Source: a virus (taxonomy: Duplodnaviria > Heunggongvirae > Uroviricota > Caudoviricetes). Taken from it: a DNA stretch of 20,656 nt. The notes below the pieces were generated by a model. It made no database searches. It saw only the letters and a list, made by a program, of their open reading frames with translations, and was not told the origin of the DNA. Both the position numbers and the translations under genes were made by a program. The stretch covers positions 1 through 20,656 of the IMG/VR virus record IMGVR_UViG_2778261572_000002; one strand, written 5' to 3'. Below, one piece after another: positions 6,084 to 20,656 of this stretch (position 1 is its first letter; each line of letters opens with the position of its first letter).

Positions 6084-7416
6084 TAATCACCATCCCGGCG
6101 GTTATGTTGTTCGGGTCACGCAGCTGCGGGTTCAGACGTTGCAGCTCTGCCGCACGGCTGTAATCACCGTACCACTGCCACGCCAGCAACAGCAGACAGC
6201 TGTCCGCCTGCACCTGTTTCTGCGTCAGCGGTGGGCGGCGTGACAGAACCAGCAGGCCGACATCCTGCACGGATGCCGCCACGTTTTTCATGCTCTGAAT
6301 GATTTCCGGGTACATCAGCCCCAGTGGTGATGCGGTTTCGGTTATCCGTTCGCGTTCGCCTTCATAGCGTTCACGGAACAGCGTAATGGCTGCCTGTAAG
6401 CGGGTGCGCACATCCCCGACCAGTCGCCCGATATCCGCCGGGATAAGCTGTTCTGACTGGGCCTCATCGGACAGTATCGCTGTTGCCACGCTGGCCAGCT
6501 CTGAGGCCGCCAGAACCGCATAAGCCGCTTTCACGTCCTGCACGTCTTCCACGGACGCATCCGGCGGAAGTGCCACAGACGGCGTTTTATCACCGCTGAC
6601 CAGTGCGACCGGCAGCGCGACCAGCTCATCCATATCTGCCATCACCTCATTCCAGCAGGTCATCACGGTCGCAGAACTGGCGACGCTGTCTTCTGCGGTC
6701 AGCCCGGTCGTGGTGGCGGAATCAGTACGTTCCAGCACCGGCACCGCGTGCCCGACATCTGACGTGTGGATTTCCAGCACCTCTGCCAGCCCGCCGATGA
6801 ACTTTCCGGGTTCGCTGGCCAGTGACATCATATTGTCGATGGATGAGAGAAAATCGCTTTTGAACGTCAGCAGGGTATTCACCAGCGTGGCACGCACCGT
6901 CTGGATTTTTTTTATCACGCTGTTAATGGTCTTTAAAGGGGCCGTAACAGCGTCAAATAATTCGCTTAACTGCGCCAGTAACTTATCCAGTTCTTCAAAT
7001 AACTGCTGTGCAAACAGCTCCGGTAACGGGGTGCTGAACAACGCGCTGCCGGTGCGGTTCTCCAGAAAACTCATGTCAATGGTGCAGCTGTCCGGGCTTT
7101 CTGCGTCATGGCGGATGCTGTAGCCGGTCACAATCACCGACGGCACAGAGCCATAAACCGGATGAATCAGTTCACCATCGCCGCCTTTATCCAGGGCGGC
7201 GATCAGCTTTTCAAGTTTATATTCGTAAAACTCCCCCCACAGGAACGCCGTCATGCGGAACGGTCGCGCCTTGCGTCCGAGGTCGTGCAAATCCGCCCCG
7301 TCAACAAACGGGTATTCATAGACCGCATGGTCGCGGCTGATTTGTTCATCCGTGTTCAGTACATCAAACTGCACGCCACGAAAGGAGGCGTTTTGCAGGT
7401 TTTCAGCCCAGCCCAT
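6067..7416 (-). CDS. Mu N-like DNA circularisation / tail protein (gp43 family)
   Basis: 449 aa ORF immediately downstream of the tape measure with an ATGA overlap; position and size match Mu N. Confidence 0.75.
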   Translation of the reverse strand: MGWAENLQNASFRGVQFDVLNTDEQISRDHAVYEYPFVDGADLHDLGRKARPFRMTAFLWGEFYEYKLEKLIAALDKGGDGELIHPVYGSVPSVIVTGYSIRHDAESPDSCTIDMSFLENRTGSALFSTPLPELFAQQLFEELDKLLAQLSELFDAVTAPLKTINSVIKKIQTVRATLVNTLLTFKSDFLSSIDNMMSLASEPGKFIGGLAEVLEIHTSDVGHAVPVLERTDSATTTGLTAEDSVASSATVMTCWNEVMADMDELVALPVALVSGDKTPSVALPPDASVEDVQDVKAAYAVLAASELASVATAILSDEAQSEQLIPADIGRLVGDVRTRLQAAITLFRERYEGERERITETASPLGLMYPEIIQSMKNVAASVQDVGLLVLSRRPPLTQKQVQADSCLLLLAWQWYGDYSRAAELQRLNPQLRDPNNITAGMVINAYAK

Positions 7417-9647
7417 CAGTAAGTTCCTCCCGTGCCTCTGTTACCGTCCTGAAGGTTGTATTTATTCACCGCCTCTGCGATAACCTGCCCGTCGAGCACC
7501 ACCTGAGTGGTGACGTTCACCGGGGGCGCTGGCGGCTGTCCGCCATTCTGAACGCCGGGCTGACCACCACGTTTACCGGATGCATTAACGGTATCAGCCG
7601 CGGTCATCCCGGCTTGCTGTCGGACTTGTTCTGGTGTCGGCAGAGAATCACCGGCGATAACCCCGGTTTTTTTCAGTTCGTCAAGATACTGCTGGATCCA
7701 TTTTTCGTTTTCTGTTGAGTAACCTTCGCCAAACTGCCACCACGGCTGGTACTTTTCACGGGCAGCATCAATCAGCCACTGAGGATATTTAGCCCGTATA
7801 TTTTTCCAGCGTTCCTCGCTTCCTTCGACGGCGGCGTCTTCTTCCGGGCTGGTTGCTGTGGCCAGTGCCGTAACGGTGCCACCGAAAGAAAGCAGGCCAC
7901 CGGCAATGCCGGGAAGTTTTAACCCTTTGCCTTTCTTAATTGTGGTTTCAAGCACATCACCAACAACGTCGCCAATCTTGCCATCTGATTTTCCCCCGGT
8001 CAGGATTTTGACCCCGGCCCATGTCAGGGCCGCTGCGGTCATCGCTTCAATGGCGGTCGTGGCCCCCACCACTGCTGTGGTCAGCCCCGGAAACTTTTCA
8101 CCCGCCCAGCTTATGGCATCGGCCACAGTACCGGATGCATCCGCCAGCTTTTTCACGCTGTCCATTTGTGAAAATTCAAGCGTGTTTTTAGCCTGCCCGG
8201 TTTTAAAATCATTCGTGTCTGATATGAATTTAAAATCCACATCACCCGCGCGCTGACCTTCCGGCAGGGTGCGCTGCTGATTAATCGCGTCTTCAACCTT
8301 TTTCCGGTATTCAGGGTTGTTACGGTAGGCTAACAACGCCATCAACGCCTGACGGTCTGCAACCAGCTTTCCGAAACCAAAGCCTTCAAGGAGTGTTGCC
8401 ATCGAATCATAAACAGCCGTCTGCTCGCCTTTATCCCTGGCGGAGGCCAGTTTCTTTTGCAGCTCCTGATAGCGTTTATCGCTGGCAACAATTTTGTCTA
8501 TCAGGCTGGACAGCGCGTCTATCGGATTAAGTCCATGTTCGCGCGCTTCAGTCAGTGTGCCGGAAAAGTCGATTCCCTTACCGTTGTAATTTATCCCCGC
8601 AGCCGCTGTTTCAATATCCTTACTGGTCAGTTTTGCCAGCAGGTTAACCACGTTATTTCCGGCCTCATCACTGCTGCCCGCCGTGATGGCGGCAGCTTCA
8701 TTCAGCGCCAGAATCTTGACGAAATCATCTTTGCCTTTCATCCCCGCAGCTGACGCAGCGCCCATTTGCTGGGATAACCAGCGGGCCATGTCGTTCAGTT
8801 CAAAGCTGCCTTCTTTGCCCGCTGCAATCGCCATATTCAGAACGGTGGAAATATCTTCATCCCTGAATCCAAAGGTCTTTTTGCCCTTAATCATCACCTT
8901 AGCCAGGTCTGTCGCTGATGCACCGGAAGCCGTGGCGTATTTCATCAGTTCAGGCAGCCACTTACTGGCTGTTTCAAATGAAATGCCGTCTTTCAGCAGG
9001 GCATCCAGCGTTTCGGCTGCATCCTCTTTCGTGCCACCACCATAGGTCACTGCGTTACGGATGCTGCTTTTCATCTGTTCAAGACCGGCTTTGCGCCCCT
9101 CCAGTCCACCATCACTGAAGGCGGTATTCGCCATCATTGCCAGCTGGCGTTCGTAGCTCATCTGCTTTTTGACCGGCTGCGCCATAATGGCAGCACCTGC
9201 TGCGATACCACCGCCAATTGTCAGAACGTTGCCGCCGATATTGGCCGCCTTTGCCAGCGTGCCGACACCGCGCATTTCCCGCTTCAGCTCCCGGATTTGT
9301 TCTTTCGTGGCACGCCATGCCCGCGCCTGTTCGCGGGCAGACATGACGCCACTACGGGCAAGGCGGTTATAACTGGCTTCAGTAAGGGCGATTTCCCGGC
9401 GGATTTCATGCTCCGAACGGATGCCAAGCGTTTCCCGGGCACGAGCTGCACGCTGTAATTCGGTGACAACCCTTTTTGTGCTGTTGATGCTCTCATCATC
9501 GGTGCGTTTCTGCTCCTGACCTGCCTTTTTGGTTGCTTTTTCCACTCCTTCAGTGGCTTTTACAACCTTCTTTTTTCCCTTTTCCAGAACCTGCGAGGCT
9601 TCGTCCTTCGCAGTCAGGGTCATGCCAACTTTGAAATTACCGGCCAT
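7416..9647 (-). CDS. Tail tape measure protein
   Basis: 743 aa, Ala/Gly/Lys-rich with predicted long helical segments; located after the tube and chaperone genes. Confidence 0.9.
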   Translation of the reverse strand: MAGNFKVGMTLTAKDEASQVLEKGKKKVVKATEGVEKATKKAGQEQKRTDDESINSTKRVVTELQRAARARETLGIRSEHEIRREIALTEASYNRLARSGVMSAREQARAWRATKEQIRELKREMRGVGTLAKAANIGGNVLTIGGGIAAGAAIMAQPVKKQMSYERQLAMMANTAFSDGGLEGRKAGLEQMKSSIRNAVTYGGGTKEDAAETLDALLKDGISFETASKWLPELMKYATASGASATDLAKVMIKGKKTFGFRDEDISTVLNMAIAAGKEGSFELNDMARWLSQQMGAASAAGMKGKDDFVKILALNEAAAITAGSSDEAGNNVVNLLAKLTSKDIETAAAGINYNGKGIDFSGTLTEAREHGLNPIDALSSLIDKIVASDKRYQELQKKLASARDKGEQTAVYDSMATLLEGFGFGKLVADRQALMALLAYRNNPEYRKKVEDAINQQRTLPEGQRAGDVDFKFISDTNDFKTGQAKNTLEFSQMDSVKKLADASGTVADAISWAGEKFPGLTTAVVGATTAIEAMTAAALTWAGVKILTGGKSDGKIGDVVGDVLETTIKKGKGLKLPGIAGGLLSFGGTVTALATATSPEEDAAVEGSEERWKNIRAKYPQWLIDAAREKYQPWWQFGEGYSTENEKWIQQYLDELKKTGVIAGDSLPTPEQVRQQAGMTAADTVNASGKRGGQPGVQNGGQPPAPPVNVTTQVVLDGQVIAEAVNKYNLQDGNRGTGGTY

Positions 9648-9795
9648 TTTTCTGCTTACCTTTTCTGCGTTTCTTTCTGAGGGATTTAAATGACTGGCGG
9701 GTGGTCTGCGAGGTGTCCTTTCTTCCTGAGACGCCGCCGTTCAGCCTGTCAACGGCGGCAAGCCAGCCGTCCAGCTCGGGACGGCTCATGGTCAT
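9637..9795 (-). CDS. Small overlapping ORF (52 aa, basic C-terminus) in the chaperone-to-tape-measure gap; either an independent small protein or the -1 frame extension of the chaperone
   Basis: ATG at 9793-9795 with a weak GAAGAG SD; encodes MTMSRPELDGWLAAVDRLNGGVSGRKDTSQTTRQSFKSLRKKRRKGKQKNGR; its stop overlaps the tape measure start by 11 nt. It is in the -1 frame relative to the chaperone and that frame is open back to 9894. Below the track's 60-aa cutoff. Confidence 0.4.
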   Translation of the reverse strand: MTMSRPELDGWLAAVDRLNGGVSGRKDTSQTTRQSFKSLRKKRRKGKQKNGR

Positions 9796-9809
9796 GATTT
9801 GCTCTTCGG

Positions 9810-10193
9810 TTATTCCGTAGCGCCCGAGGATGAGGACTGCGAGCCGGAGTCCGGCGAGCCGGGATTCCCGCCGCTCCGCTTTACCTTCAGAATGTCACGT
9901 GCCGCTTTCAGAATCTCAAAATCTTCCGGCACCATATGGTCATACAACAGTTCCGCCGTCAGTTCTTCCTGCGGGATATCTCCCAGACGGACCAGCGTTG
10001 CCGCCATCACCGCACAGCGGTAGTAATAATCCGCCGCGAATCCAGCCACCGTCTGAAAGCGTTCTTCCGTTTCTTCCAGTGCCTGCCCGTTATCACGCAT
10101 GACCGGCAGACGCAGCTCAAAGTTTTTATGAAGGATACCGTTAAACTCCACGCCAACTGACAGTTCGCCGGTATGTGTATTAATCAAAGTCAT
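9810..10193 (-). CDS. Tail assembly chaperone (Mu gp41-like; lambda gpG analogue by position)
   Basis: 127 aa acidic protein between tail tube and tape measure; ATGA overlap with the tube gene. Assignment is by synteny. Confidence 0.6.
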   Translation of the reverse strand: MTLINTHTGELSVGVEFNGILHKNFELRLPVMRDNGQALEETEERFQTVAGFAADYYYRCAVMAATLVRLGDIPQEELTAELLYDHMVPEDFEILKAARDILKVKRSGGNPGSPDSGSQSSSSGATE

Positions 10194-10564
10194 CCTGTCA
10201 CCTTCCTGAGTGCAGCCATTTTGATATCAATTTTCGCTTCACTGTCGACGGTGTATTTCTCACCCACTTCGGTTGTGAAGCAGTCCAGATAGGAGGTGCG
10301 CTTGCCGCTGTTACTGAGCGGATAAATTGAGATTTTCACACCTTCCAGATTTTCCCAGTCCGGCTCGTTGGTATCAGGGATAACCGCCGAAACTGAAATA
10401 TCGTAAGTGGCAATGCCACGGGCAAAGCCTTTAGCCCTGCCGGTTTTGTTCATGGTCTTGACCAGCTTTCGCCCGGTGTTGATCTGAACATCGAAGTCGG
10501 TGATCTCGATTTCCTGGCTGTCCACCTCCAGCACAATCGAGCCGACATATTCTTTAATGGACAT
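10190..10564 (-). CDS. Tail tube protein (Mu M-like)
   Basis: 124 aa ORF directly downstream of the sheath gene; AAGGAG SD 9 nt before ATG 10564. Confidence 0.85.
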   Translation of the reverse strand: MSIKEYVGSIVLEVDSQEIEITDFDVQINTGRKLVKTMNKTGRAKGFARGIATYDISVSAVIPDTNEPDWENLEGVKISIYPLSNSGKRTSYLDCFTTEVGEKYTVDSEAKIDIKMAALRKVTG

Positions 10565-13283: not shown

Positions 13284-13625
13284 TTACTTCTCCTTTTTGT
13301 CCGCTTTTTGTGTTTTCTGTGCGGCGTTCAGCTGTGCGGTCAGTTCACTGACTTTCTGGCGTTCTTCTTCCAGTTGCGCCGTCAGTTCGCTGACTTTCTG
13401 ACGCTCGGCATCCAGCTGTGCGGCCAGTTCATTACCCCGGGCCGCGTCGTTCTGACCGGACGCTTTATCACGCTCCACCACAATCAGCATGGGGTCCGCC
13501 TTCAGCACCGCCAGCTGTTCCGGGGTGAACGCATCCACAGGCCATTCCTTCGTGGTTGCGCTGTGTGCCACACCGCAGCGGCGAAAACCCTCACGGCGGG
13601 CGGTAATTTCAATCACCTTTTCCAT
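13284..13625 (-). CDS. Mu gp35-like small protein with C-terminal coiled-coil repeat and Lys-rich tail
   Basis: 113 aa; GGAG SD 6 nt upstream of ATG 13625. C-terminal half has a tandem 14-aa repeat (AQL[DE][AE]ERQKVSELT x2) and ends ...KTQKADKKEK. Synteny position directly after the major capsid gene. Confidence 0.55.
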   Translation of the reverse strand: MEKVIEITARREGFRRCGVAHSATTKEWPVDAFTPEQLAVLKADPMLIVVERDKASGQNDAARGNELAAQLDAERQKVSELTAQLEEERQKVSELTAQLNAAQKTQKADKKEK

Positions 13626-14547: not shown

Positions 14548-14943
14548 TTAACTGAAATAAACCCAGACGCCATCGCCACAGATGCCGATCACTTTACCGG
14601 CGACAGGACGGGCGCTGCTGTTGTCGGTTTTTGCCACGGTCACGCTGTCTTCCACGTAACACAGCTTACCGACCTGCGATTGTGTGACCGGGTCTGAGGT
14701 GCTGTTCGCCATCAGAAAGGATTTGCCGCAACGCACCAGAACGGTGACATCACCATCGCTGCCGGTGCTGTTATCCGCCCAGCCATCAGACACGCCCAGC
14801 GTAATCTGTGAGGCCGTGGCACTGGCCGGAACGGCATAACCGGATGCGTTAACGGCCACCATATGACCGCCAAAAATTTCGGTTGCAGCGGCAACCGGCA
14901 CCGGGTTCAGCTCGCCGTCACGGTAGGGGGTATTGCGATCCAT
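14548..14943 (-). CDS. Hypothetical head protein between protease and capsid (possible decoration/cement protein)
   Basis: 131 aa; ATG 14943 abuts the protease stop (TAA-ATG) with an AGGAG SD. Ser/Thr/Gly/Val-rich, beta-like composition, not scaffold-like. Function not assignable from sequence alone. Confidence 0.55.
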   Translation of the reverse strand: MDRNTPYRDGELNPVPVAAATEIFGGHMVAVNASGYAVPASATASQITLGVSDGWADNSTGSDGDVTVLVRCGKSFLMANSTSDPVTQSQVGKLCYVEDSVTVAKTDNSSARPVAGKVIGICGDGVWVYFS

Positions 14944-17983: not shown

Positions 17984-19565
17984 TCAGTCGCCCCCAGATA
18001 TCCGCCACAAAGAATGCCTGCGTCAGCAACTGCCGCAGCGTGTCATCCGGCAGCTCCGGCCATGCTTCCGCCAGTACGTTCATGGCCTCGTCTGCATCCC
18101 GGCCTTCCTGTATGGCCTGCACCAGTGGGGCCACCAGCTCGTTCATTCCCTGCGCGATGGCTTCTGCCGGAAGTTCTGCCCGGTCGATGGCGCGTTGTGC
18201 CGGGTCGTCCTCTCCGTTGTCCTGCTGACTGAGTGCAGCAACATTCAGTCGCTCACGCAGCTGGCTGAGGCCCGCCTGCACAGGCAGACGCTGTGCCACC
18301 GGCACCAGTACCTCTTCGCCGTCTTTCGGGGTGGGGATACCGGTTTTTTTGCGTACCCACGACGCCGGGATATCCTTCATACCCACACTGTTGAGCAACA
18401 CGCTGACGGCGTCCGCCACGCCCTTAATGTCGGCTTCCTGCTGCACATCAAACACCAGTCGCGGCAGACGGCGGGGCGGGATATCCTGCCAGCCGTTGAG
18501 GCTGGCCATCATCTGTATCAGGCTGCTGAACATGCCGGACAGCTGGCGTGCATCGGCGGCCAGAATGTCGTGCCGGACCTCGTTATGCACATTACCCAGC
18601 GCGTTGGTGGAGGTTTTACCGTCAGCCTGGCTGGTCAGCGTACTGCCCAGAATCACTTTTGAGGTGGTGCGCTCTGCCCATTCCACCATCGACATGAACG
18701 CCTCCGGTCCGCCGGACGCGGCCTCCTTGAACTCAATTTCGTTACCCTGCGGCAGGGCTGCCACCGCTTCATGACCCAGATTGACCAGCGCCTCAAGAAT
18801 GTTGTCCCGGTCCTCGTCACTGGTGCCCTGTGCATAGTAGGCAATACGCGCCGGAAGGCCGTAAATCTCCAGAAATTCTGCCATATCACGCAGCGCAAAG
18901 TTTTTGAACAGATATGGCCAGACCAGTACGCGGAACAGGCCGGATGAACCCAGGAACCCCGACCGGGCGTTGTAACGGTGAACCAGCCAGCCGAACGGCC
19001 ACAGCGCGGAACCGTCCTTACCATCCTCCCCACGATTGCCGTCATCCAGACGGAGTTCGTCATTGTGTTCCGGCAGGGTAATAAACCAGTTATGCGGGCG
19101 CAGCGTCACCGCATCCGGTAACCACGTTTTATCCACGAACGCCCAACTGATTTCCTGACAGCTGAAGCCATAACCGACACTGCTCATCCCGTTGAGGATG
19201 ATGTCCTCCATGTCCGGGATGCCGTGCAGCCATTCATCCACGGCGGCAGCCAGCTCCTTTTCTGCCTTCGAGGCATTGCGGGGCGGCTCCACCGACCAGT
19301 CCAGCGTCAGCAACGCTTTTTTGCGCTTTTCCATCTCGGCGAACAGATGGCCATCACGTTCTTCCATATCCGCAAACAGCATCGCCTGCGCCGGAAGATA
19401 GCCGCGCTCGGCGGCTTCCAGAATGCGCGGCAGTTTTCTGATGTTCAGACCACGGGACGGGTGGTCGGGATAAATGCGCAGCCGTTCCGCCACTCTGACC
19501 GACTGCGTGGTTTTGAGTGCCTCACGTTTCAGCGGGCGTCCGTAAATATCAACAAGCTGTGCCAT
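17970..19565 (-). CDS. Portal protein (Mu gp29-like)
   Basis: Start moved from 19571 to the second ATG at 19563-19565 (MAQLVDIYGRPLK...): GGAGG directly abuts the first ATG (spacing 0) but is 6 nt from the second, which overlaps the terminase TAA by 1 nt. About 531 aa, immediately after the terminase. Confidence 0.85.
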   Translation of the reverse strand: MAQLVDIYGRPLKREALKTTQSVRVAERLRIYPDHPSRGLNIRKLPRILEAAERGYLPAQAMLFADMEERDGHLFAEMEKRKKALLTLDWSVEPPRNASKAEKELAAAVDEWLHGIPDMEDIILNGMSSVGYGFSCQEISWAFVDKTWLPDAVTLRPHNWFITLPEHNDELRLDDGNRGEDGKDGSALWPFGWLVHRYNARSGFLGSSGLFRVLVWPYLFKNFALRDMAEFLEIYGLPARIAYYAQGTSDEDRDNILEALVNLGHEAVAALPQGNEIEFKEAASGGPEAFMSMVEWAERTTSKVILGSTLTSQADGKTSTNALGNVHNEVRHDILAADARQLSGMFSSLIQMMASLNGWQDIPPRRLPRLVFDVQQEADIKGVADAVSVLLNSVGMKDIPASWVRKKTGIPTPKDGEEVLVPVAQRLPVQAGLSQLRERLNVAALSQQDNGEDDPAQRAIDRAELPAEAIAQGMNELVAPLVQAIQEGRDADEAMNVLAEAWPELPDDTLRQLLTQAFFVADIWGRLNADS

Positions 19566-20656
19566 TACCATCCTCCTGAACCAAAACGCCCGCCACGGTC
19601 ACGCCCGGTGCTGCGTGGGGTGTGAATCTGAAATTTTGCGCTGCGCGATACCGCCAGCGTCCACAGCATGTGCAGACAGTCCGGGCCATCATCGTGGTCG
19701 GCTTTGGGGTAGTGGCGCAGCTGGTCAATCAGTGTCTGATGTGTGTGGCTGATACGAATCAGGCCGTTGGCCATATGCGGCTGAAGGGATTCAATACGCA
19801 GCGCCTTATCCTCCAGCGGGATGACCGGCAGCGCCGGAACCGGTACGCCCAGCGCCGCCGAACGCTCAACCAGCACGGTACGCAGAAACTCCTGAAACTG
19901 GACGGACTCAAACGACCAGCACAGGCAGTGATATTCCCGCTGATACTTAATCACGTCTTCGATAAGTTTATTCGGCAGACGTCGGCGGATATCGGCTTCA
20001 ACCACATCCAGAATGCCGGTAAAGCGGTTAAAGCCCCCCACGAGAATGGCCGACGGGTCGCGGTTTTTGTTTTTCTTCCCGAGACTGGGGTCAACAGCAC
20101 CATAAAACACCCATTCATCAAGACGGTTAACCCAGAACTTAATGCAGCCCGCAAACAGCGCATCTTCACCGCTGACCGGGTCGTTCTGGTATTCAGAATC
20201 AAAGGTGTCATGACCGTCACGGACACGGATTTTCATCAGCGCCAGCAGGGGACGCGCCGCCCATGACACCACTGACCCGGCGAGCATGTCGGCTTCGTTC
20301 TGCCGGTAAAGTGCCTCCGCCGCTTCCGGCTGTTTGTTGCGGATGAGTTCTTCCCACTCGTCCCACAGCTTCATATTGGCAGGCCACTGAATAACGGCCT
20401 TAAAGCGGGCCGTTTTCCACATCGGGTTATTGAGTGTGCGCGACAGTACGGAGTCGTAATGCAGGATGGTTCCGATATAAATAATATCGGTTTTACCGCC
20501 AGCCTCACCCAGCGGCATCACGGTTTTGGTGAGCCAGTCGTGCAGCTTGTCGCGCTGCTCCGGGTTACGCACCATCTCGTCGTTCTCGATGTCGTCGAGG
20601 ATGACCAGGTCAGGACGGTACGGACCGTGGCGCAGACCACGCAGTTTTTTACCACT
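19565..20656 (-). CDS. Terminase large subunit, C-terminal ~360 codons (N-terminus beyond window end)
   Basis: The reading frame is open from the window end (...LVILDDIENDEMVRNPEQ...) to the TAA at 19565-19567. Contains acidic motifs (...DHDDGPD...) consistent with the terminase nuclease domain. Directly upstream of the portal. Confidence 0.8.
   Translation of the reverse strand, partial: SGKKLRGLRHGPYRPDLVILDDIENDEMVRNPEQRDKLHDWLTKTVMPLGEAGGKTDIIYIGTILHYDSVLSRTLNNPMWKTARFKAVIQWPANMKLWDEWEELIRNKQPEAAEALYRQNEADMLAGSVVSWAARPLLALMKIRVRDGHDTFDSEYQNDPVSGEDALFAGCIKFWVNRLDEWVFYGAVDPSLGKKNKNRDPSAILVGGFNRFTGILDVVEADIRRRLPNKLIEDVIKYQREYHCLCWSFESVQFQEFLRTVLVERSAALGVPVPALPVIPLEDKALRIESLQPHMANGLIRISHTHQTLIDQLRHYPKADHDDGPDCLHMLWTLAVSRSAKFQIHTPRSTGRDRGGRFGSGGW

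Follow-up and report, generated by a model that had tools for sequence, protein, structure and literature searches.

A probable programmed -1 frameshift joining the tail assembly chaperone to an overlapping reading frame in a Mu-like Escherichia coli prophage

The junction between the tail tube and tape measure genes in the window, that is, the whole stretch of 20,656 nucleotides of viral DNA analysed here, very probably holds a G/GT-type tail assembly chaperone pair of a Mu-like E. coli prophage, expressed from a single mRNA through a programmed -1 slip of the ribosome. As we read the sequence, the small ORF at this junction would be the second half of the frameshifted chaperone, and the 52-aa ORF called by databases would correspond to the 3' two-thirds of the T extension. 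In the proposed mechanism, most ribosomes would read from 10193 to 9813 and release a major product of 127 aa, with a predicted folded core (residues 1-107) followed by a disordered Ser/Gly/Pro tail, while a minority would slip one base in the 5' direction when decoding AAG (codon 105) after GUA. The tRNA-Lys (anticodon mnm5s2UUU) would then re-pair from AAG to AAA (9882-9880), GCG would become the next codon, and the -1 frame would be read for 80 codons up to a TAA just inside the tape measure gene, giving a predicted fusion of 185 aa (105 + 80). By analogy with lambda gpG/gpGT, the two proteins would coat the tape measure protein by means of their common N-terminal domain, and recruitment of the tube protein would fall to the rare T extension. 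The locus presents the position between tube and tape measure genes, the overlapping ORF that is coding upstream of any start and the conserved slippery sequence at the beginning of the overlap by which G/GT pairs are recognised, and the product of its first ORF counts, by homology or fold, among the tail assembly chaperones.

Table 1. Features at the tail tube, chaperone and tape measure junction (positions in the window).
Feature	Position	Strand	Details
Tail tube gene	10190..10564	minus	phrog_185 'tail tube protein', E 3e-35
Tail assembly chaperone ORF, zero frame, G-like product, 127 aa	9810..10193	minus	stop TAA 9812-9810
Putative shift site G_GUA_AAG	9879..9885	minus	P-site GUA 9884-9882, A-site AAG 9881-9879, core tetramer A_AAG 9882-9879
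Putative -1 frame extension (T-like domain), 80 codons	9637..9879	minus	GCG 9879-9877 to TAA 9639-9637
Candidate 3' stimulatory hairpin	9845..9878	minus	MFE and RNAalifold consensus
52-aa ORF as in RefSeq, called in phrog_3114	9637..9795	minus	'hypothetical protein'
Tape measure protein gene	7416..9647	minus	PF10145 and phrog_794, E 1e-239

The genes follow one another in the order tube, chaperone, -1 ORF and tape measure, the stop of the tube gene overlapping the start of the chaperone (ATGA) and the end of the -1 ORF overlapping the tape measure ATG (9647-9645) by 11 nt. The first-pass annotation had described the -1 frame of the chaperone as open from 9894 to 9637, and this is indeed the case, a TGA at 9897-9895 being followed by 85 codons that run to the TAA shared with the 52-aa ORF; the translation ends in ...KSLRKKRRKGKQKNGR. 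The ATG at 9795 with a weak Shine-Dalgarno sequence that it had also reported is likewise present, GAAGAG standing upstream of the 52-aa ORF. Between 9894 and 9795, no ATG, GTG or TTG occurs in the -1 frame, and predicted tryptic peptides encoded in this frame upstream of the ATG include LAGLR, LAVLILGR and YGITEEQIMTMSRPELDGWLAAVDR, the last with its N-terminal part between 9879 and 9796. Around and after K105, the zero frame reads ...KVKRSGGN...; the predicted fusion would read ...DILKVK-AERRE... across the junction.

The same annotation had seen no canonical X_XXY_YYZ heptamer, and none is found in the zero frame of the overlap, where only two Z_ZZN tetramers exist, A_AAG (9882-9879) and G_GGC (9825-9822). 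The first of these, which had escaped notice, stands in the zero frame where the -1 frame becomes coding. G_GUA_AAG is in the window a non-canonical site of the NNA_AAG type, with re-pairing of tRNA-Lys from AAG to AAA, and on the degenerate heptamer G_GNA_AAG only the A-site tRNA would re-pair perfectly. In the P site, GUA meets GGU with a mismatch at the middle position, and on account of this imperfect re-pairing little shifting is to be expected of the site unless a stimulator is at work. In E. coli, cmo5U34 tRNAs with broad wobble decode the 5' codons of the clade, GUA and GCA. Greater wobble propensity of the tRNA leads to higher shifting, according to a review (PMC5009743 / PMC4066793). 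No tetramer shifts more readily in E. coli than A_AAG, for which 5.6% is attained with a pseudoknot stimulator (PMC4066793), and natural NNA_AAG sites are in use, for example G_CGA_AAG in IS1222 (PMC5009743). For percent-level efficiency, NNA_AAG or A_AAG sites need a 3' stimulator (Licznar 2003; Sharma 2014; as cited in PMC5009743 and PMC4066793).

Efficiency could here be raised by a predicted GC-rich hairpin and by the rare CGG codon that follows the site. The predicted upper stem pairs 9873-9867 (CGGCGGG) with 9858-9852 (CUCGCCG) over 7 bp, closes a loop at 9866-9859 and is separated from AAG by 5 nt; a lower stem (9878-9875 with 9848-9845) is also predicted, weaker and not conserved. In the clade, the GC-rich 3' block has 10 variable columns out of 34 versus 59/92 (p 6e-4) and 45/56 (p 2e-6) in its two flanks, a conservation that could equally be due to double coding of both frames. 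RNAalifold detected no compensatory pairs or covariation in the hairpin, its folding energy is no better than that of shuffled sequence (z from -0.3 to -0.5), the 3' region has no match in Rfam and no common 3' structure was found in the relatives carrying the strong heptamer. Since the z-scores do not exceed those of shuffles and compensatory pairs are missing, the hairpin is retained as a modelled element which may stimulate slipping. A pseudoknot between the loop sequence CCCGG and a downstream UCGGG was dropped because the partner encodes the conserved LGR motif and is out of register in one close relative (L029). A Shine-Dalgarno-like stimulator was also rejected, the AAGG directly 5' of A_AAG being too close for the known -1 geometry and no such element being present at -10 to -14.

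The comparison covered about 80 homologous loci, among them 29 close-relative loci with chaperones 45-100% identical and 50 further viral contigs recovered with the T peptide. All 29 close loci have an open -1 frame from the zero-frame K-x-K-R onward; in two of them (L029 and L030) the opening falls precisely at GGT AAA, only 43 nt before the zero frame stops. At the position of 9885-9879, the clade of the window carries G_GUA_AAG or G_GCA_AAG, relative L027 carries G_GGA_AAG, which is the site of lambda, and Klebsiella phage ST405-OXA48phi1.1 (L003, chaperone 38% identical) carries A_AAA_AAG with a -1-frame TAA immediately 5'. The homologous site is also A_AAA_AAG in the 50 distant loci, most of which have a -1-frame stop 3 nt upstream and none of which has one between the opening point and the Met. 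A conserved slip site, which the first-pass annotation had suggested looking for in homologous prophages, was thus found as an A_AAG core extended to A_AAA_AAG or G_GGA_AAG in relatives, and no homologue with a -1 frame closed throughout the overlap was encountered, the frame being open from the same point in all loci examined. Wobble entropy gives the same position for the change of coding phase: upstream of the site the highest value belongs to the wobble position of the zero frame (1.49 versus 0.97 and 0.70 bits), starting with the site the maximum moves to that of the -1 frame (1.11 versus 0.72 and 0.57), and in a sliding window over 60 unique sequences the switch falls at position 0, which is A_AAG itself. 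Between the slip site and the ATG, pairwise codon differences amount to 313 synonymous and 342 non-synonymous in the -1 frame versus 88 and 610 in the zero frame. Starting at K-A, the T peptides of all relatives can be aligned without a single gap, and wobble-phase variation follows the -1 frame along the entire extension.

It is conceivable, albeit on balance doubtful, that one enterobacterial clade swapped the strong ancestral A_AAA_AAG for the weak G_GNA_AAG while fixing a near-invariant GC-rich 3' hairpin and keeping the rare CGG, in a trade-off between slip site and stimulator that would set the G:GT ratio. If this were true, the ratio could be sensitive to the supply of host tRNA-Arg(CCG) or to growth state.

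A separate gene for a basic protein of 50-52 aa, initiated at the ATG at 9795 or 9789 and perhaps translationally coupled to chaperone termination, is an improbable account of the small ORF, even if some independent initiation may take place at 9795 behind the weak GAAGAG. The second Met (9789) is conserved in most relatives, and both RefSeq and PHROGs annotate the ORF in this manner, all database homologues being so called, as ORFs of 50-64 aa, and phrog_3114 starting at the Met of the annotated 52-aa ORF; these annotations are nevertheless weightless as evidence because gene callers cannot produce frameshifted models. The best-conserved residues of the T peptide, in the motif LALGRYGI[TS]E, are located upstream of the annotated Met, the Met at 9795 is not conserved among relatives, and the one at 9789 is a Leu in L079, L082, L083 and L111. 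In the Klebsiella phage, the Shine-Dalgarno-like AAGGA abuts the ATG with zero spacer. Further against separate initiation, variation keeps to the wobble phase of the -1 frame over the entire interval between slip site and Met, which is also free of stops in the distant loci, most of them being closed just before the slip site. The first-pass annotation had held frameshifting and independent translation to be equally possible; the frameshift is now strongly supported by the comparison of loci, while the 52-aa ORF finds no support as the main route in view of the conserved motif upstream of its ATG, the lack of conservation of that ATG and the phase switch at A_AAG. A -1 shift elsewhere in the overlap, on G_GGC or within GGC GGG AAU CCC, is very improbable. 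G_GGC is the sole other Z_ZZN tetramer available and the GC-rich block is highly conserved, but G_GG.C is not among the shift-prone tetramers of E. coli (PMC4066793) and GGG_AAU has no cognate re-pairing. The -1 peptide is moreover conserved from K-A at A_AAG even where the zero-frame tails are unrelated, and in L029 and L030 the zero frame ends before the equivalent of 9825.

The insertion of one A into the mRNA by RNA polymerase, which would yield the fusion without any ribosomal slip, is an even more remote prospect. Homopolymer runs of A8-A9 length can support polymerase slippage (reviewed in PMC5009743), and 49 of the 50 distant loci have a run of A8 followed by G, contig L103 having an A9 that fuses both frames; the window and its clade, however, have only three consecutive A (GGUAAAG), far too short a run, with an equally conserved -1 frame, and L027 (GGGAAAG) is also devoid of a long run. 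As for a chance open frame without function, the openness of 85 codons is by itself within chance expectation: on the minus strand of the window, 34 stop-to-stop stretches reach 85 codons or more, about 10 of which, from our reading of the list, are off-frame stretches of 85-150 codons inside other genes. What goes beyond chance is the conservation of the -1 frame, which opens at one shared point in all the homologous loci examined and bears a coding signature. In about 80 loci, with identities as low as about 40%, the frame is kept as protein and shows -1-frame wobble periodicity, by which a functionless frame is already refuted and retains next to no probability.

Programmed -1 frameshifting being thus the preferred reading, the locus can be set beside known systems. 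In lambda, gpG/gpGT arises from a -1 shift on G_GGA_AAG (Levin 1993; Xu, Hendrix & Duda 2004, 2013, 2014; as cited in PMC5009743). The lambda pair that the first-pass annotation had taken as its paradigm is an apt comparison, since both systems share the slot between the major tail (tube) and tape measure genes, a short upstream ORF, a -1 extension that needs no start of its own and ends at the start of the tape measure gene, and a putative slip on ..A_AAG read by tRNA-Lys, the lambda heptamer itself being found at the homologous position in L027. The window differs from lambda in having no detectable sequence similarity to the lambda families, a myovirus context (contractile tail), a P-site codon GUA instead of GGA with perfect re-pairing by the A-site tRNA only, and a conserved GC-rich 3' block. 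Mu is closer by genome type and by synteny (DUF2635, sheath, tube, chaperone, tape measure, N, gp44-48), and it too obtains two products through recoding, but its chaperone, gp41 with Mu_56, belongs to a different family and undergoes a verified -2 frameshift (GenBank AF083977 annotation, PMID 15469818). The Mu shift takes place within the G-rich stretch CGGGGGCG, as opposed to the -1 shift proposed on A_AAG in the window, and Mu gp41 belongs to PF23746 (9e-35) and PF10109, whereas the window chaperone is without a Pfam match even at E 10. BLASTP of the window chaperone against Mu gp41 gave no alignment, and no relationship emerged when the T profile was compared by hhalign with the Mu -2 extension.

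The mode of slipping proposed here is also that of G_CGA_AAG in IS1222 and A_CGA_AAG in cdd of B. subtilis, in which a single tRNA-Lys slips from AAG to AAA and the 5' codon re-pairs poorly or not at all; unlike the IS1222-type case, the window encodes a phage tail chaperone instead of an IS transposase, and its stimulator is predicted only. The dnaX-type A_AAA_AAG is used by distant relatives of the same chaperone family (50 loci), whereas the window itself has no A_AAA_AAG and no dnaX-like Shine-Dalgarno element 10-14 nt upstream.

Database searches returned little for these proteins. Pfam and NCBIfam contain no family for the chaperone, the T peptide or the fusion, a sequence search of PDB with the chaperone profile gave noise only, and Foldseek against PDB and BFVD produced nothing at E <= 0.001; among the weak BFVD matches are a few 'tail assembly chaperone' entries. 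In GenBank phages, tblastn with the T peptide found nothing and the chaperone search found 4 records only. Homology search with the T extension retrieved only calls of 50-103 aa, mostly starting at Met, and no annotated fusion.

A programmed frameshift in the tail chaperone is a well-known phage device which is unannotated at this locus, and the general picture of tail assembly is unchanged by the finding. Wherever its annotation was examined, in RefSeq records, viral contigs or protein databases, the locus appears as two unrelated hypothetical proteins, the T part being placed in PHROGs in a family of unknown function (phrog_3114), and gene callers overlook the predicted 185-aa product in many prophages and in no fewer than 56 complete genomes of E. 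coli. The relatives furthermore provide a natural series of sites, A_AAA_AAG, G_GGA_AAG, G_GCA_AAG and G_GUA_AAG, with and without the conserved downstream block, which could be used for testing the effects of P-site mismatch and 3' structure on frameshift efficiency in E. coli. Recognising the frameshift would assign a function to both ORFs, as the two parts of a tail assembly chaperone pair.

Relative to the chaperone (zero) frame, the -1 frame is closed by TGA at 9897-9895 and is then, as the first-pass annotation had described, open from 9894 to 9637; it ends in the TAA at 9639-9637, 11 nt within the tape measure gene. Openness of this frame alone is unremarkable, since the minus strand of the window holds 34 stretches of 85 codons or more between stops and, from a reading of the list, about 10 of them lie off-frame within other genes. 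The ATG noted at 9795 is present and gives a 52-aa ORF; no ATG, GTG or TTG occurs in the window's -1 frame between 9894 and 9795. The region is carried by 56 complete E. coli genomes at 80-99.7% identity, and in both RefSeq records examined the chaperone and the 51/52-aa ORF appear as two separate hypothetical proteins. Relatives of the -1 peptide in the protein databases are all short calls (50-103 aa), mostly beginning at Met, with no fusion among them.

Genes flanking the overlap between the tail assembly chaperone and the tape measure
Feature	Coordinates	Strand	Assignment
Tail sheath gene	11998-10577	minus	
Tail tube gene	10564-10190	minus	phrog_185
Tail assembly chaperone ORF, 127 aa	10193-9810	minus	phrog_508 'tail assembly chaperone', E 6e-38
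Tape measure gene	9647-7416	minus	PF10145, phrog_794
Mu-type DNA-circularisation protein N gene	7416-6067	minus	

The remainder of the window constitutes a late module of Mu-like type that is complete, with genes that include portal, Mu F, protease I, major head gpT, gp36, gp37, DUF2635, gp44-48, tail fibre and fibre assembly. Within it, a 113-aa ORF at 13284-13625 (-) has a FluMu_N domain and an internal tandem repeat (ERQKVSELTAQL twice) situated in a predicted coiled-coil-like region. The ORFs at 14548-14943 (-) (131 aa) and 19565-20575 (-) (336 aa) gave no Pfam match at E <= 0.001; the latter, which runs off the window's end region, precedes the portal gene, the position expected for a terminase large subunit.

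Column entropy was calculated for 60 unique sequences aligned on the candidate slip site. In the 57 nt upstream of the site, entropy peaks at the zero-frame wobble position (1.49 vs 0.97 and 0.70 bits), while from the site to the conserved Met the peak is at the -1-frame wobble position (1.11 vs 0.72 and 0.57 bits), and in a sliding-window analysis the switch falls on the slip site itself. In a set of ten divergent sequences, the stretch from the slip site to the ATG shows 313 synonymous vs 342 non-synonymous codon differences in the -1 frame and 88 vs 610 in the zero frame; upstream of the site the pattern is reversed between frames. The annotated Met lies downstream of the most conserved peptide motif of the family, LALGRYGI(T/S)E. 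Of the two Met codons, the first (9795 in the window) is not conserved, and the second (9789) is replaced by Leu in four loci (L079, L082, L083, L111). On this comparative evidence, phase, motif and Met data are incompatible with the ATG as the only start of expression, and they are what a frameshift at A_AAG would predict. Frameshifting and independent translation had been held equally possible in the first pass; the phase switch and the motif upstream of the Met favour the former, and the ATG start loses its equal standing. The 52-aa ORF as an independent gene is an annotation artefact, although some separate initiation may occur at a low level.

The feature is real and the -1 frameshift reading very probably correct, with G_GUA_AAG (9885-9879) as the slip site. 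The zero frame of the overlap holds no X_XXY_YYZ heptamer, in agreement with the first-pass annotation, and two Z_ZZN tetramers only, A_AAG (9882-9879) and G_GGC (9825-9822). At AAG (codon 105), tRNA-Lys could re-pair perfectly to AAA one base upstream, and re-pairing of the P-site tRNA-Val with GGU would involve a middle-position mismatch. In E. coli no tetramer is more prone to shifting than A_AAG, which is barely active by itself and reaches about 5.6% with a strong 3' stimulator (PMC4066793); natural use of NNA_AAG is known from IS1222 (G_CGA_AAG), the efficiency depending on wobble properties of the 5'-codon tRNA (PMC5009743). Two products are predicted: the chaperone of 127 aa, and a fusion of 185 aa made of residues 1-105 followed by AERRESRLAGLRLAVLILGRYGITEEQIMTMSRPELDGWLAAVDRLNGGVSGRKDTSQTTRQSFKSLRKKRRKGKQKNGR. 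For the chaperone, AF2 gives a model with high confidence over residues 1-107 and disorder beyond about 111, so that the slip would fall at the end of the last helix. Past the site, the zero-frame tail (9813-9878 in the window, and homologues) is Ser/Gly/Pro-rich and predicted disordered; counted from the Lys AAG codon onward, its length ranges between 14 codons (L029/L030) and about 28, and within the window's clade it is conserved only in its first ~12 residues (RSGGNPGSPDS).

Thirty-one loci were collected through the chaperone, 29 of which were analysed directly. All 29, whose chaperones are 45-100% identical, have a -1 frame that is open from the zero-frame K-x-K-R onward; none of them is closed throughout the overlap. 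In L029 and L030, GGT AAA is directly preceded by a -1-frame stop, and the zero frame terminates just 43 nt later, confining any shift to that short interval. Among close relatives, the block AAGGNAAAGCGG...GGCGGGAATCCCGGCTCGCCGGACTCCG is nearly invariant at the nucleotide level with flanks free to diverge. The chaperone of Klebsiella phage ST405-OXA48phi1.1 is 38% identical, and its homologous L-K-K-K-R is encoded by CTT AAA AAA AAG CGG, which contains the classic A_AAA_AAG heptamer; a -1-frame TAA comes immediately before it. The -1 peptide of this phage (KADARTAGLSGLRRATLILGRFGIS...) and that of the window (KAERRESRLAGLRLAVLILGRYGIT...) can be aligned with no gaps; the zero-frame tails are unrelated. 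At the homologous place, L027 carries G_GGA_AAG, lambda's own slippery sequence. Scanning viral contigs with an alignment of the -1 peptides recovered 79 loci, 50 of them with A_AAA_AAG at the homologous position (T peptides, the -1-frame extensions, 40-70% identical), and in most of these 50 the -1 frame opens just 3 nt upstream. The window's clade has G_GUA_AAG or G_GCA_AAG. The comparison of homologues proposed in the first pass yielded a conserved site, A_AAG and then CG being invariant in the whole family.

The codon 5' of the P-site codon (9885-9887 in the window; L001-L031) always ends in G, mostly AAG and CGG in L005, hence heptamer position 1 is an invariant G and NA_AAG is immediately preceded by AAGG/CGGG. 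Possible reasons are re-pairing of the P-site tRNA at the first position, choice of codon, and limited divergence. Distant relatives (L056-L111, position ~1490-1504 in each) carry TTAAAAAAAAG, an A8 run then G, on which transcriptional slippage could in principle occur besides ribosomal slippage on A_AAA_AAG; the window's clade, with A3 only, cannot support it. In L103 (1480-1510; IMGVR_UViG_2571042420_000001), the run has 9 residues instead of the 8 of its siblings, so that chaperone and T extension run together in a single ORF of 175 aa, whose sequence is identical to the siblings' predicted frameshift product; the explanation is either a sequencing error in the homopolymer or a mutant that makes only the fusion. 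In L058 (~930; IMGVR_UViG_2851255004_000003), the chaperone is in the third frame relative to a truncated T ORF, probably an assembly or indel artefact; L056, its sister contig from the same genome, has neither the displacement nor the truncation.

The 34 nt after the site fold as a hairpin in MFE and RNAalifold predictions, with an upper stem of seven pairs, six of them G-C (9873-9867 with 9858-9852), an 8-nt loop and a start 5 nt past AAG. Within the clade, 10/34 columns of this block vary, vs 59/92 in the following T region (p 6e-4) and 45/56 upstream (p 2e-6); for -1-frame wobble positions the figures are 4/11 vs 29/31 (p 4e-4). Variation is confined to the loop and lower stem except for a single change, which affects the basal upper-stem pair (9873). 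A constraint at the RNA level is plausible, since the T residues encoded by the block vary in the wider family and disorder is predicted for the zero-frame tail. Strong-heptamer relatives share no common structure in the corresponding region. Against such a constraint, RNAalifold found no compensatory changes in the hairpin, the folding energy of the 3' region is no better than that of shuffled sequence (z about -0.3), and the block has no Rfam match; double coding could also explain the invariance. The hairpin may act as a stimulator, and the rare CGG codon after AAG, present there in 40/50 distant loci too, may contribute.

The functional arrangement of the locus matches the lambda G/GT paradigm invoked in the first pass, an arrangement conserved in long-tailed phages with -1, -2 or +1 shifts depending on the phage (PMC5009743; PMC2628397). 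Phage Mu, whose gp41 belongs to Pfam PF23746, uses an experimentally verified -2 shift according to its GenBank annotation (L032 3053-3487), whereas the window locus (9810-10193) would shift -1 in an otherwise classic Mu-like late module. Neither Pfam nor NCBIfam has a family that matches the window's chaperone, BLASTP shows no similarity between it and Mu gp41, and the two extensions are unrelated by hhalign. Since a Mu-like module here contains a chaperone with no detectable sequence relationship to gp41 and a -1 rather than -2 shift, the sequences suggest mosaic replacement or extreme divergence of the chaperone/extension gene pair. Consequently, with a lambda-like arrangement but no PF23746, BLASTP or hhalign relationship, the locus is a member of the G/GT functional class and lies outside the sequence family of Mu gp41. 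The shift site belongs to the NNA_AAG type, for which the reviews (PMC5009743; PMC4066793) give IS1222 and B. subtilis cdd as examples, not tail chaperones. Taken together, this is a previously unannotated instance of a well-known kind of device, of modest value as a natural series of homologous shift sites with a possible compensating hairpin.
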